Positions 51,675 to 54,600 of a DNA stretch of 64,000 nucleotides are shown one piece after another. The stretch spans positions 1 to 64,000 of IMG/VR virus record IMGVR_UViG_3300025759_000062; one strand, 5' to 3'. The notes under the pieces were generated by a model that had not been told where the DNA came from, did not search any database, and saw nothing but the letters and a program-made list of their open reading frames with translations. A program made the position numbers and the translations under genes. Numbering within the stretch: the first letter of the stretch is position 1; each line of letters begins with the position of its first letter. Source of the DNA: a virus (Duplodnaviria; Caudoviricetes).

Positions 51675-54600
51675 TGCAAAAGAAGTTTGAACACAAAGAA
51701 AGTAGAGGGTTACCTGGTGGACCTAATGAAATGTTTACTTATGTAACTGGTGTATTTGATATATATCAAGCACCATCTAACATAGAAGGTCAAGGTATGT
51801 TTGCTGGAAAACCTTTTAAGAAAGGTGATCTTATAGGATTAGCACATAGCAATGGTCAACCAGCATCTCAGCTTGGTAGAATGCATAATCATGATGAGAA
51901 CTCTCCAACTATGATTAGTAAAAAGAGTGGTAATGATAGATTTGTATTTGCAGCTAAAGACTTACAACCAGGAGATGAGCTTACTACTAACTATAGAATG
52001 CAACCTGAGTTAGAGCAACCAGAGCAATTTCAGAATGGTGGTAGTGTAATGGTGCCACCTAGAAAAGGTGTTAGAAAAAATCCTGATGGTAGTGAGTCAA
52101 CACATCTTATGGCTACTGAGACTTTAGATGGTAAGAACTGGTTTTCATTTCCAACATTATTCCAAGACCCAGATGGTACTTGGATTGATATGTCTGATAA
52201 ACCTTGGCAAGAAGCATATGAAGAAGCCAAGAAAAGAGGTGAGGTTATAGAATTTGGTACAGATAAAGAAGCAGCAATTAAGTTTGGAGAAGGTTCTTGG
52301 AAACTACCTAAAGCTCAACAGGGTAAACAGTTACCACCAGCTGTTAGAGATATGTATCCTACAGAAGATCCTATATACTATGACGGGATGCTGGCTGAAA
52401 CTACAGTTACTGCTCCTAAATATGAAGGTCCTCAAATACGCAGAGCATTTCCTGGTGAAACAGATCCTATTAACACTAACTTTAGTTTTATGGGTGTTGA
52501 CAAGTCTGGTGGGTTGAGTGCTTTAAAAGGTATTGGTAAAGGTATTAAAGGTTTATTAGGATTAAGAGGAGCTGCTGATGAAGTATTTATACCTCGTAGT
52601 AAGTCTAATTATAAATTTCCTACCTCAAAACTTAAAACAGAAAAAGATGTTATTCATCCAGATAATTTAGCATTTGTACCTGAAAATATTATTAATAAAG
52701 AAGTACATTCTTTTTTAAAGAAAAATAATATTGATATAAGTAAATTACCAGAATCTCATGTATGGGCAAAAAATGGTACAGATTATATTTTACCAGAGGG
52801 TGTTAATCATGATATTTTAAATGAATACGCAAGATTACATCATAATAAACCATATACTCCTGAATTTAGAAAAGTAATCAAAGCTATAGAAGAATTAAAT
52901 CCTGGAATTAAAATAACTACTAGTCATGATTTGCATGCTGTTGCTTCAAATATTCCAACAAATCAATGGTGGGGTAATAAAGTAAATAATTTTAAAAAAG
53001 GTGGCTCACTACCTAAAGCACAGAATGGTAATGGTGAAGTAGTGAGTCTTTCTCCAAGTGATCCTAGATATGCAGAATATTACAACAGACTTAATGATGA
53101 TGTTGTTTTAGCTGACCCAAGTGGTAAAACTGCAGGACGTATATTCTTAGATGAAGTGGATGTTGTTGCTAATAAGCCAAAACCTAGTAAATTTAATTTT
53201 CAACCACCCACATCTGTACAGGATCAGATTGCTTTACAAACACCATTTAGATTTTCACCAGAAGGTATTGCTGCTGGTAAGTCTTATCAAGAATATCAGG
53301 ATTACATAAATAGTTTACCATACGATCAAAGACCAGGTTATATACAACCTACAATATCAGAGTATGTTCCACCAAGCACGGGAGAATGGTTGTGGGATAA
53401 AATTAGTAATCCAATGACTAGTTTGGGTTATGTTGTGAGGGGTCAAACGGATATTATGCCAGATAGACTAGGAAACAGTCCAGATAGAAACATTATTGAT
53501 TATGCCGTTGATGTTATTAATCCTGCGTCATATGCTAATACAGTTGTTGATATGGGTGAAAAGATAGGTGAAGGTGATATTGTAGGAGCTGGTCTTGATG
53601 CTATTACCCTTACACCTATAGTACCTACAGCTGCAAAGCAAGGAACAAAATTATTTAAAAGATCTGTTCAAGTAGGAAATAAGTATGTAACCCCTCTTAG
53701 TCATAAGAGACTTTATCAATTTAATCCTCTTGCTAATCAACAGCCTCCGTTTACCACAGTAGTTAGAACTCAAATGCCTGGGCAAACAGGAAAACTAGTT
53801 ATGGGTCAATACTATGATGACTTAGCAAATCAAGGAAAAAAGTTAAACTGGAGACAAAATTTAGATAGGAATTCTTCTAGAAGATATGGATGGGGTAGAG
53901 GATTTTCATCTGATCCTGCTGATATATCAAATTATAGTAATCCTTCATTTACTTCTTGGAGAGGCTATGACCCTAATTTAATAAATCCTGAATTGCTAAT
54001 TCAAAGATTACCTACTAGTTATTTAGATGACTTTAAGGTTGCTAATTTAAGTTCTGATGCACGGAAGGCTTATGGTAGTGGTAAAAGTGATGTAGAATTT
54101 ATATTACCTATAGACGATGTTATAAGTGCAGAAAGCAGATCACTTTCAAAAGAAGCATATGATGAAATAAGAAAGATCCGTAGTGCTGAATTAACACCAC
54201 ATTGGTGGAAAGGTTTTCAAGAAGTTAAACAAGATGGTGGTGAAGCTTCTAAAATTGCTGCACAACAAGCAACTGGATATAGACCACAAGCTACTATATC
54301 ACAATATGAAGAACCAGCATGGTATGAAAAGGCAGCTGACTATTTAGCAAGTCCTATGACTGCACTTAGTTACATAGTTCAGGGAAAAGATTTGCCTGAT
54401 AGAATTCCAATTAATGCAGAAAATAGGAATACTTATGATATGGCTTTTGATATGATTAATCCTGCTGCATGGGCAGCATATGCAGAATCAGCAGATAAAA
54501 ATCTTAAAGAAGGTAATTATACAGCCGCAGCATTTGATGCATTGGGTGCAATACCTGTAATACCTTCTTCTGTATCACAAGGTAGAAATGTTGTCAAGGT

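Follow-up and report, generated by a model that had tools for sequence, protein, structure and literature searches.

The locus downstream of the muzzle gene

The window analysed here is a stretch of 64,000 nucleotides from an uncultured crAss-like phage, a virus of the Caudoviricetes (positions 1 to 64,000 of IMG/VR record IMGVR_UViG_3300025759_000062). It contains a virion module in which a large open reading frame (ORF) directly follows the muzzle gene. The genes of this part of the module are the following:

45677..46558, + strand: tail ring protein 1 homologue, 293 aa, 8 Cys (Pfam CrAss_Ring_1 PF24228, E 1e-8; phrog_34036, virion structural protein)
46563..51674, + strand: muzzle protein, 1703 aa, 15 Cys (Pfam crAss_MUZ PF25731, E 4.3e-33; phrog_37948 and phrog_15100, virion structural protein)
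51674..56236, + strand: ORF for the SET-headed mosaic protein, 1520 aa, 0 Cys, in the position of ΦcrAss001 cargo protein C1 (gp45)
56274..63821, + strand: three more large ORFs of 617, 844 and 1032 aa, each with 0 Cys, in the ΦcrAss001 gp46/gp47 positions

Read from the sequence, the ATG of the 1520-aa ORF shares one base with the stop codon of the muzzle gene, and the ORF appears to be translationally coupled to that gene in a late structural operon. Pfam and PHROG scans identified the ring protein, muzzle, portal, terminase and crass capsid of the phage around it, and the placement in a phage structural module given in the initial annotation therefore holds. No Pfam or PHROG family was found for the 617-, 844- and 1032-aa ORFs. 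A gene on the opposite strand was rejected, since the antisense side of the SET region has only ORFs of 41-66 aa. The scan of 26 window ORFs yielded, among others, a GroES-like protein, a DUF5856 protein and the capsid protein. The two HU/IHF-like proteins that had been attributed to the phage were not among them, and Pfam Bac_DNA_binding (PF00216) gave 0 matches in the 117,277-base genome at E <= 0.01; this attribution was not confirmed.

In ΦcrAss001 the genes for gp45, gp46 and gp47 follow the muzzle gene. PMC10172136 describes the mass-spectrometric detection of all three proteins in virions, places parts of gp45 in both tail and capsid, and reports disulfides in tail parts. The 1520-aa protein resembles gp45 in that both are large, near Cys-free (2/842 in gp45, 0/1520 here) and encoded directly downstream of the muzzle. 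Both have hydrophobic segments, and gp45 is annotated as a putative transmembrane protein. Together with the next three ORFs the SET protein has 0 Cys in 4013 residues, as compared with 15/1703 in the muzzle and 8/293 in the ring protein; among the five proven cargo proteins of ΦcrAss001 the count is 7/7478. Low Cys content is not specific to cargo, however, as the capsid protein (0/538) and a tail-fibre protein (0/1392) are also Cys-free. No BLASTP similarity to gp45, gp46 or gp47 was found (best E 0.99, 0.77 and 0.74), so that cargo status is an argument from gene position and composition only. Moreover, gp45 is supported by proteomics and cryo-EM, whereas the SET protein is known from sequence alone, and the account of gp45 in PMC10172136 reports no enzymatic domain, in contrast to the SET domain here. 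From these likenesses we infer that the 1520-aa protein may be virion cargo like gp45.

A trimmed SET module at the N-terminus

The interval 51755-51994 had been annotated as a minimal SET-domain lysine methyltransferase on the basis of three peptides. In frame it corresponds to aa 28-107 of the 1520-aa ORF, and all three peptides are present in that frame, SNIEGQGMFAGKPFKKGD at aa 35-52, GRMHNHDENSPT at aa 68-79 and AAKDLQPGDELTTNY at aa 93-107. The features of this region are as follows:

51761..52033, + strand: trimmed SET domain, aa 30-120, which essentially encloses 51755-51994 (Pfam, PDB profile search, model and Foldseek)
51776..51796, + strand: SET motif I region, S35-N-I-E-G39-Q-G41 (GxG), aligned with MLL1 S-P-I-H-G-R-G
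51845..51847, + strand: His58 (G-L-A-H), at the place of canonical motif II (YxG)
51878..51910, + strand: SET motif III, R69-M-H-N72-H73-D-E-N-S-P78-T (canonical RFINHxCxPN), aligned with MLL1 R-F-I-N-H-S-C-E-P-N
51977..51994, + strand: SET motif IV, E102-L-T-T-N-Y107 (canonical ELxFDY, with the catalytic-site Tyr), aligned with MLL1 E-E-L-T-Y-D-Y and the C-terminal block of vSET
51995..52030, + strand: conserved acidic tail, R108-M-Q-P-E-L-E-Q-P-E-Q-F119, followed by a Q-N-G-G linker

The Pfam SET profile (PF00856), the check proposed with the annotation, gives 31.9 bits (E 1.8e-7) for aa 1-130, or 24.5 bits when the whole protein is scanned. Both values exceed the curated cut-off of 22.4, and the match spans only profile positions 57-104 of 105, i.e. 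the C-terminal half. In the whole-genome scan the score is 22.1 bits for the match alone and 30.5 with its neighbours. A profile built from 28 family members retrieves 36 PDB sequences at E <= 0.01, all of them named histone-lysine methyltransferases, with MLL1 as the best (3.5e-9) and vSET at 4e-7. The single sequence is weak against PDB (vSET best, E 0.11), and all 8 matches at E <= 10 are SET enzymes. The AlphaFold2 model, made from 27 whole short proteins and thus from a shallower alignment than possible, has a mean pLDDT of 69.8 and block means of 74-88 over aa 31-110. At that model confidence its overall fold agrees with SET structures at probability 1.00 and TM 0.43-0.62. Foldseek finds 33 PDB matches at E <= 1e-3, and among the matches listed all are SET domains, headed by vSET 3kma (E 2.2e-4, TM 0.51/0.62, 22% identity). 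The overall fold of the model thus bears out the annotated domain, and the resemblance to vSET that had been suggested is confirmed, as vSET is the closest solved structure both by single sequence and by Foldseek. In BFVD there are 13 matches at E <= 1e-3, and every match that bears a name is either a 'SET domain' protein or a lysine methyltransferase. The best are A0A218ML49, a 971-aa protein from an uncultured virus (E 1.7e-8, 33% identity), and A0A6J5PTS6 from an uncultured Caudovirales phage, followed by Marseillevirus LCMAC101 (100 aa, TM 0.79 on the target) and Catovirus. The 'SET domain containing' names in UniProt/BFVD indicate that automatic annotation already labels such phage proteins SET. 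A 'SET-domain protein (ORF62)' label also occurs in passing in a Stenotrophomonas phage genome paper. A chance motif match was rejected in view of the Pfam score, the profile-versus-PDB matches and the Foldseek matches. By its sequence and predicted fold, the N-terminus is a real but cut-down SET module.

Conservation was counted over 179 domain copies (alignment rows). In motif I, S35, I37 and G41 occur in 179/179 rows and G39 in 153/179; His58 is present in all 179. N72 and H73 of motif III are invariant, with H71 in 170/179 and P78 in 173/179 rows, and so are E102, T104 and Y107 of motif IV. The acidic tail is nearly as constant (R108 in 171 rows, Q110 in 175, P111 in 179, E112 in 171, L113 in 178, Q115 in 174, P116 in 173 and F119 in 173) and could represent a post-SET-like lid. 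In pairwise comparison some copies are only about 45-50% identical to the query, yet G41, N72, H73, E102, T104 and Y107 stay at 179/179; the invariance of the catalytic motifs at this divergence argues for selection on SAM binding and catalysis. According to the description in PMC3585878, motif I (GxG) and the NH pair of motif III contact AdoMet, and the motif II Tyr lines the lysine channel. In the SET fold, motifs III and IV together make up a pseudoknot.

The module is also reduced. It has ~85-93 aa, compared with about 130 aa in the canonical domain with its SET-I insert. About 30 residues are missing; the gap between the two aligned blocks is ~16 residues here and ~49 in MLL1, and SET-I is absent. 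There is no Tyr in aa 53-69 of the query that could provide the YxG of motif II; column 58 of the family alignment holds an invariant His instead, which on our reading of the alignment would be equivalent in position to motif II. The post-SET zinc cluster is absent as well (0 Cys in the protein). The 'minimal SET' of the initial annotation therefore stands with respect to motifs I, III and IV, which are intact, but not with respect to the motif II Tyr and SET-I. The size of 80-120 aa given there does not describe the protein as a whole: the module forms the first ~120 residues of a 1520-aa mosaic protein. With the motif II Tyr and ~30 residues including SET-I gone, activity could be lost or altered.

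The lost elements canonically shape the substrate groove and lysine channel (PMC3585878), and together with the absent zinc cluster and the half-matched Pfam profile they would fit a catalytically dead relic, retained as a structural or binding element for, e.g., tail-lumen docking or host-protein binding. We consider this unlikely. The SAM-contact and active-site residues (GxG, NH, ExTxxY) count as invariant in 179/179 rows, G39 itself excepted, which is unexpected for a scaffold. Further, the closest solved structure, vSET, is active at only 119 residues (PMC7019647), SETs of ~100 aa exist in giant viruses, and the motif II mutant Y245F of Set7/9 stays active in the account given in PMC3585878.

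Comparison with known SET proteins makes both the likeness and the reduction visible. Like vSET of the chlorovirus PBCV-1 (PDB 1n3j, 3kma), the phage module is a minimal viral SET without pre-SET and post-SET zinc clusters. vSET is free-standing, has 119 aa, belongs to a eukaryotic virus and acts on K27 of histone H3, whereas the phage module has ~90 aa, heads a 1520-aa protein of a bacterial virus whose host is without histones, has His58 at the motif II place and, judged from the spacing of the aligned blocks, is without ~20 further residues between motifs I and III. vSET works as a dimer; two copies of aa 26-125 modelled together with SAM gave no answer for or against this in the phage module (score 0.00, obtained without controls and with SAM itself unscored). 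With the canonical SETs of MLL1/KMT2A, SET1, EZH2 and SETD8 the module shares motifs I, III and IV and a fold match at probability 1.00, but it is without the YxG Tyr, SET-I, post-SET and known partner subunits. Giant viruses have SETs of about 100 aa; these are free-standing and belong to viruses of eukaryotic hosts, whereas the phage SET is fused and resides in a bacterial virus.

Frame and cassettes of the 1520-aa protein

Beyond SET, which is the sole domain identified, the rest of the 1520-aa protein is without a Pfam or NCBIfam family. It contains 112 Lys and recurrent K/Q-x-G-G linkers. Comparison with relatives and with itself delimits the following parts:

51674..51763, + strand: N-terminal leader, aa 1-30, conserved and present on SET-less relatives too
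52064..52324, + strand: constant module, aa 131-217, common to about 27 fetched proteins, including the SET-less P0040-43, P0048 and P0053
53327..53689, + strand: internal repeat copy 1, aa 552-672, with the most hydrophobic segment of the protein
54266..54628, + strand: internal repeat copy 2, aa 865-985, with the second most hydrophobic segment
55586..55966, + strand: C-terminal region, aa 1305-1431 (phrog_3108, E 3.8e-9)
55994..56233, + strand: constant C-terminal tail, aa 1441-1520, matched by about 40 fetched proteins and the most widely shared part of the body

The leader has a pLDDT below 52 in the AlphaFold2 model, and 14 full-length proteins (P0040-P0053) and 2 fragments (P0190, P0192) align solely to query aa 1-29 to 1-33. 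In the database the gene call (P0014) begins only at Met20, but since aa 1-19 are conserved, the ATG at 51674 is the better-supported start. The ΦcrAss001 muzzle has an unassigned helix of 14 residues (PMC10172136), to which the leader might correspond. The aa 131-217 module, for which there is no Pfam match, is preceded in relatives either by SET or by a different module, and in the SET-less proteins this alternative of about 70 aa lies between the same leader and the same downstream module. The two internal repeats are 37% identical over 123 aa (pairwise E 1e-23), and their hydrophobic segments are both moderately hydrophobic.

The identity of aa 1305-1431 as lysozyme/SLT-like is a weak lead. 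The nearest named ESM Atlas clusters of aa 1290-1520 are SLT or lysozyme at 0.83-0.84, which is under the trust level. Searches of this region against Pfam, NCBIfam and PDB sequences gave no match to a lysozyme or transglycosylase, and the homologue search returned only 6 proteins, none of which has a name or a Pfam domain. An AlphaFold model of the region, built on 7 sequences, reaches a pLDDT of 57.7 and has 0 Foldseek matches at E <= 1e-3.

Relatives carry ART-PolyVal (PF18760), LysM, SLT, YkuD, GH24 lysozyme and PG_binding_1 domains. SET occurs in combination with LysM, SLT or ART-PolyVal, and the modules are shuffled among relatives. In these alignments SET is one interchangeable, putative payload cassette in a fixed frame that consists of the 30-aa leader, the aa 131-217 module and the C-terminal tail, and the same frame in sister phages holds other cassettes, namely ADP-ribosyltransferase, LysM, YkuD and lysozyme domains. 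ADP-ribosyltransferase (ART) cassettes require NAD. The LysM, YkuD, lysozyme and SLT cassettes act on peptidoglycan, and the protein or parts of it may end in the periplasm, which is SAM-free.

ART-PolyVal is, as we take it from the Pfam name, an effector domain of polyvalent proteins, and its presence in relatives is a likeness of the SET protein to that class. Polyvalent proteins are large and combine unrelated effector domains in one polypeptide that enters with the invading DNA (Iyer et al. 2017, PMC5512222). The class has 2-15 unrelated effector or enzymatic domains, whereas in the 1520-aa protein only SET was identified, and the hub domains MPTase, ArdC, SNF2 and MuF named in PMC5512222 were not found in it. 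In the main text of that paper 'SET' occurs only as an ordinary word, and 'lysine methyl', 'protein methyl' and 'crAss' have 0 occurrences.

Possible role of the SET module in infection

The SET module family comprises 560 clusters at 50% identity (E <= 1e-3) and is, in these searches, virus-restricted: 96 relatives are in viral contigs, and 185,579 species genomes yielded a single relative, located on a MAG contig of 4.4 kb. Among deposited phage genomes, from which records of the phage's own genome may be missing, tblastn gave 0 matches in 50,697 records (whole protein at 1e-5; 97-aa core at E <= 0.1), and no cultured phage is known to have the module. A muzzle homologue is present in 33 of the 80 IMG/VR loci examined, and in 32 of these 33 the SET ORF starts <= 25 nt from the end of the muzzle match. 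In 40/80 loci SET is close to the C-terminus of ~630-750-aa proteins; the two such loci with scanned neighbours (L048 and L073) have this gene adjoining a DNA methyltransferase gene, which fits a cytoplasmic, SAM-dependent role. DHH-linked SET copies in other phages sit outside virion modules. The occurrence of the same module in apparently non-virion proteins indicates that packaging is not intrinsic to its function.

We lean, with moderate confidence, towards the reading that aa ~30-120 are a genuine and probably active trimmed SET protein-lysine methyltransferase, which as virion cargo would be injected and would methylate host or phage proteins. The particle of this phage would thus probably contain an enzyme that methylates proteins and is delivered to the host on infection. 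The cargo protein would be made late and wait in the tail and capsid in an unfolded or partially folded state; at infection it would be extruded through the muzzle and would refold in the host, which is perhaps one of the aquatic Bacteroidota. There SET would use host SAM to methylate lysines of host proteins or of co-injected phage proteins, and this methylation would precede the expression of phage genes. The proposal in the initial annotation that HU/nucleoid, ribosomal or defence proteins may be methylated on entry is conjecture, as the sequence points to no target. Packaged virion enzymes are known, T4 Alt ADP-ribosyltransferase being an example. PBCV-1 vSET (A612L), described as packaged in the virion and methylating host H3K27 early in infection (PMC7019647), is another.

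A more specific version is held only tentatively. CrAss-like phages of environmental bacteria may inject a lysine methyltransferase as a first strike on a host protein. SET would then act seconds after entry, either as a freed domain or while still attached to the tip of the cargo protein that emerges from the tail first, and the host protein that it methylates could be a defence sensor, RNA polymerase or a nucleoid protein. The module would thereby fill the swappable slot in which sister phages have an ADP-ribosyltransferase.

An active SET could also work in the producing cell and methylate virion or cargo proteins of the phage late, before or during packaging. Its targets could be the lysine-rich body of the protein itself, with its 112 Lys and recurrent K/Q-x-G-G linkers, or the neighbouring cargo proteins, and the effect might be protease protection or tuned packing or ejection. 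The location of the gene in a late structural operon with apparent translational coupling to the muzzle agrees with this, SAM is available in the producing cell, and a mycobacteriophage tail protein is reported in PMC13445384 to be methylated by a host enzyme and to need this for infectivity. On the other hand, an enzyme of this kind needs no fusion to a cargo-position protein, the same slot is filled by ART-PolyVal in relatives, and the DHH-linked copies of other phages lie outside virion modules; we regard work in the producing cell as improbable, to the same degree as a dead relic. The most doubtful alternative is that the 1520-aa protein is an external or tail-tip lytic or adhesion protein, or an envelope-retained ejectosome part, whose SET never meets cytoplasmic SAM: the peptidoglycan-directed LysM, SLT, YkuD, GH24 and PG_binding_1 domains of relatives, the two moderately hydrophobic repeated segments and the absence of gp45 similarity speak for it, but the protein is Cys-free like proven cargo and unlike the disulfide-bearing tail parts described in PMC10172136, its post-muzzle position is conserved, and the ART-PolyVal cassettes that share its frame depend on NAD from the cytoplasm.

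Known injected phage enzymes include ADP-ribosyltransferases, RNA polymerases and DNA-protecting methylases, and some intracellular bacteria also use SET enzymes for host manipulation. In the open-access literature searched, supplements aside, no description of a SET enzyme as a virion-delivered bacteriophage effector was found. If the predicted methyltransferase is both injected and active, the injected phage enzymes would gain a new chemistry; the module would also offer a natural ~90-residue SET core for the study of the minimum needs of SET catalysis, and it would show crassvirus payload swapping on a constant cargo frame. Should the first strike on a host protein prove true, lysine methylation would be a new class of phage take-over or counter-defence chemistry, and the SET-I-less core with His58 in place of Tyr would represent a minimal SET architecture of a new type, which might be suited to a protein that unfolds and refolds when it is ejected.

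Gene setting of the SET module

The window spans that half of a crAss-like phage genome in which the virion genes lie; the source record is 117,277 bases long and, by estimate, complete. The stretch 51755-51994 is in frame with a 1520-aa ORF, here called the SET protein, and corresponds to its aa 28-107 (counted from the ATG); the opposite strand carries no ORF beyond 41-66 aa at this place. The three peptides which the initial annotation had read as SET motifs are present in this protein, at aa 35-52, 68-79 and 93-107. The virion genes around it are the following:

14313-16502, terminase (phrog_6681, E 1.6e-60)
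16505-19261, portal (phrog_6547, E 4e-95)
20739-22355, crass capsid protein (PF23898, E 3.2e-32)
35143-39321, tail fibre
45677-46558, tail ring protein 1 (PF24228, E 1e-8)
46563-51674, muzzle protein (PF25731, E 4.3e-33)
51674-56236, + strand, SET protein (1520 aa), the next ORF after the muzzle gene

The database gene call for this ORF (P0014) is 1501 aa long and begins at Met20 (window position 51731), dropping most of a conserved leader. The ATG at 51674, which has one base in common with the muzzle stop codon, is the better start, because aa 1-19 are conserved. Two other genes of this half are a GroES-like co-chaperonin gene (14032-14313; Pfam Cpn10, E 6e-13), located directly 5' of the terminase gene, and a gene for an SbcD/Mre11-like DNA repair exonuclease (43155-44375; phrog_704, E 6.5e-40), located among the tail genes just ahead of the ring and muzzle genes.

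The SET fold and its trimmed form

Four tests (Pfam, PDB sequence, PDB profile and fold) identify the N-terminal module of the SET protein as a SET domain. First, the Pfam search proposed with the initial annotation calls SET for aa 1-130 with a score of 31.9 bits (E 1.8e-7) against a cut-off of 22.4; the match takes in only positions 57-104 of the profile's 105, which is its C-terminal half. Second, the single sequence has eight matches in the PDB at E <= 10, all eight of them SET enzymes and the best vSET of chlorovirus PBCV-1 (E 0.11), a weak but consistent result. Third, when 28 family members are combined into a profile, 36 PDB sequences score at E <= 0.01, each named as a histone-lysine methyltransferase, among them MLL1 (3.5e-9) and vSET (4e-7); the alignment consists of two blocks, S-x-I-x-G-x-G-l-F and H-N-H through G-e-E-i-T-t-d-Y. 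Fourth, an AlphaFold2 model built from 28 sequences has a mean pLDDT of 69.8 (block means 74-88 across aa 31-110), and with this model Foldseek returns 33 PDB matches at E <= 1e-3, all SET domains among the matches listed, with vSET 3kma in first place (E 2.2e-4, TM 0.51/0.62). Against BFVD there are 13 matches at E <= 1e-3, led by two proteins named 'SET domain', one from an uncultured virus (971 aa) and one from an uncultured Caudovirales phage. Behind these come Marseillevirus LCMAC101 and Catovirus with SETs of ~100-130 aa.

Canonical SET domains are described as having motifs I (GxG), II (YxG), III (RFINHxCxPN) and IV (ELxFDY), of which III and IV form a pseudoknot (PMC3585878). Conservation was read from 179 rows, the query and 178 domain copies cut from 192 fetched proteins. 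All 179 keep S35, I37, G41, G55, H58, G68, N72, H73, E102, T104, Y107 and P111, and H71, P78, R89, A93 and G100 are almost invariant. The alignment thus shows the trimmed SET to retain motifs I, III and IV, with residues that are invariant or almost so. In contrast to the canonical domain, the phage module is without SET-I and without the motif II tyrosine; only ~16 residues separate the two aligned blocks, whereas MLL1 has ~49. The invariant His58 (G-L-A-H) sits, by its placement in the alignment, roughly where motif II would be. With ~85-93 aa the phage core is shorter than the 119-residue chain of vSET, which has been termed the smallest histone methyltransferase in a review (PMC7019647). 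Motif IV is followed by a 12-residue acidic tail, R-x-Q-P-E-L-E-Q-P-E-D/Q-F, most positions of which are kept in 171-179 of the 179 rows; our guess is that it acts as a C-flanking lid with Phe119 as aromatic cap. The SET protein contains no cysteine, and therefore a zinc-bound post-SET is excluded.

A swappable cassette and the distribution of the family

Around the SET module the protein has a constant frame, and the module itself is an exchangeable cassette. In fourteen full-length relatives (P0040-P0053) the match to the query is confined to aa 1-29 to 1-33; they share the leader M-x-K-K-F-E-H-K-E-S-R-G-L-P-G-G-P-N-E-M-F-T-Y-V-T-G-V-F, after which an unrelated module of ~70 aa is located. 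In six of the 13 N-termini inspected this module is followed by the same constant module that stands after SET here (aa 131-217). Past aa 130 the relatives have common blocks in shuffled order and number, the commonest being the last ~80 residues, found in ~40 proteins. Precomputed Pfam domains in 39 SET-bearing relatives are LysM (6), SLT (7), ART-PolyVal (3) and PG_binding_1 (1); the 14 leader-only relatives have LysM with YkuD (5), GH24 lysozyme with LysM (2), ART-PolyVal (2) or none (5). The 30-aa leader (51674-51763) is kept on proteins in the cargo position with or without SET, and may act as a signal for docking or for ejection. At the muzzle of ΦcrAss001 an unassigned 14-residue helix is described (PMC10172136), and the leader could be this helix.

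Further features are found along the protein. An internal duplication relates aa 552-672 (53327-53689) to aa 865-985 (54266-54628); the two copies align over 123 aa at 37% identity, with a pairwise E of 1e-23. The most hydrophobic segment of the protein and the second most hydrophobic one are found here, one per copy, and may be membrane-contacting elements. K/Q-x-G-G motifs occur at aa 122, 443, 855 and 1208 (52037-52048, 53000-53011, 54236-54247 and 55295-55306). The first, after the SET tail, is situated where two modules meet, and two or more of the others are near borders of the blocks shared with relatives. They may be linkers or processing sites. Domain, sequence and fold searches gave no identity for the C-terminal domain.

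The module is matched by 560 clusters (50% identity) at E <= 1e-3, 227 of them at <= 1e-10. Among the 178 copies, 144 have their start in the first 60 residues of the protein; internal copies number 27 and C-terminal ones 7, and four of the fetched proteins have two copies each. In IMG/VR, 118 stretches fit the search patterns. A relative is encoded by 96 of them, of which 80 were retained and sorted by tblastn and ORF tracing. A muzzle homologue is located upstream on the same strand in 33 of these loci, and in 32 of the 33 the SET-bearing ORF begins <=25 nt from the end of the muzzle match; the exception, L004, has an internal SET (aa 658 of 1451) 4.4 kb downstream. In 40 loci (L038, L040-L063, L065-L078 and L080; e.g. 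L048:6381-8633 and L073:6561-8645) SET is near the C-terminus, at ~aa 444-548 of a ~630-750-aa protein, which represents a non-virion setting of the trimmed SET. All five tested have a weak DHH-type (DHH-phosphoesterase-like) N-terminus (18.7-22.1 bits, under the 28.1 cut-off), and at the two loci with scanned neighbours, L048 and L073, the neighbouring gene encodes a DNA methyltransferase, as matches to phrog_67 show (E 5e-45 and 5e-47), with a nucleotide kinase gene also nearby in L073. Three loci (L011:1870-3207, L012 and L013) encode a 446-aa protein with a C-terminal trimmed SET and a Polβ-type nucleotidyltransferase-like N-terminus, which has weak Pfam matches and matches phrog_36119 at E 8.5e-45. 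The remaining four loci have other short or N-terminal forms.

The family is restricted to viruses. Among 185,579 prokaryote species (one genome each) 14 stretches fit the pattern and only one, L083, is a relative; it is on a 4.4-kb contig that was binned into a Phycisphaerales MAG and is likely to be of phage origin. The 50,697 records of deposited phage genomes gave no match to the SET module. Related PHROGs are phrog_28741 and phrog_34170, both without a function label, and phrog_36695 ('virion structural protein'), whose first ~150 positions span the SET of L004. Such proteins are already labelled 'SET domain' by automatic annotation (precomputed Pfam, UniProt names), and a 'SET-domain protein' is mentioned briefly in a paper on one phage genome (PMC9025141). 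Our search of open-access literature found neither crassvirus cargo described with a SET module nor a lysine methyltransferase described as injected by a phage, and the main text of a survey of polyvalent proteins (PMC5512222) has nothing on SET domains, protein methylases or crAss.

Cargo position and proposed activity

In ΦcrAss001 the muzzle gene (gp44) is followed by gp45 (cargo C1), gp46 (C2) and gp47 (RNA polymerase-associated protein), and mass spectrometry is reported to have detected all three in virions. For gp45, segments are resolved at two places, the portal (inside the capsid) and the inner wall of the tail barrel, and the model derived from this has partial unfolding, with extrusion preceding the DNA (PMC10172136). 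The SET protein and the ORFs after it have the same position, and BLASTP detected no similarity between them and gp45, gp46 or gp47 (E 0.99, 0.77 and 0.74). The SET protein and the next three ORFs (617, 844 and 1032 aa; together 51674-63821) contain no cysteine in 4013 residues, against 15 in 1703 in the muzzle and 8 in 293 in ring protein 1; the five proven ΦcrAss001 cargo proteins have 7 in 7478, and 73 of 146 fetched large relatives (>600 aa) have none. Cysteine depletion might be a simple marker of crassvirus cargo, but the capsid protein (0/538) and a tail fibre (0/1392) are likewise free of cysteine, and therefore it is only suggestive. The opposite extreme is a 701-aa ORF in the tail module (40310-42415), which has 24 cysteines (34 per 1000 residues) and belongs to no PHROG family. 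From gene position and composition we infer that the SET protein is virion cargo.

What could the module do there? We lean slightly towards the reading that it is active as a SAM-dependent lysine methyltransferase, sits at the front of a cargo protein and is delivered at infection. Activity is suggested because the SAM and active-site motifs are invariant, which makes a catalytically dead scaffold unlikely. It is similarly doubtful that SET works on virion or cargo proteins while still in the producing cell. Least probable is that the protein stays in the envelope and SET never meets SAM; the peptidoglycan-directed cassettes of relatives are the main reason for keeping this alternative, whereas action in the cytoplasm is favoured because ART-PolyVal cassettes fill the same frame and because the same SET adjoins DNA methyltransferase genes in other phages. 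As to targets, the initial annotation had proposed host HU among others and had credited the phage with two HU/IHF-like proteins; the HU idea found no support: a genome-wide scan with Pfam Bac_DNA_binding gave 0 matches and none of the scanned window ORFs is HU/IHF-like. As a delivered methyltransferase, the SET module would ride at the front of the cargo protein, enter the host at infection and act in the cytoplasm with SAM. PBCV-1, which 'encodes and packages' vSET (PMC7019647), provides the analogy for such a virion-carried SET enzyme.
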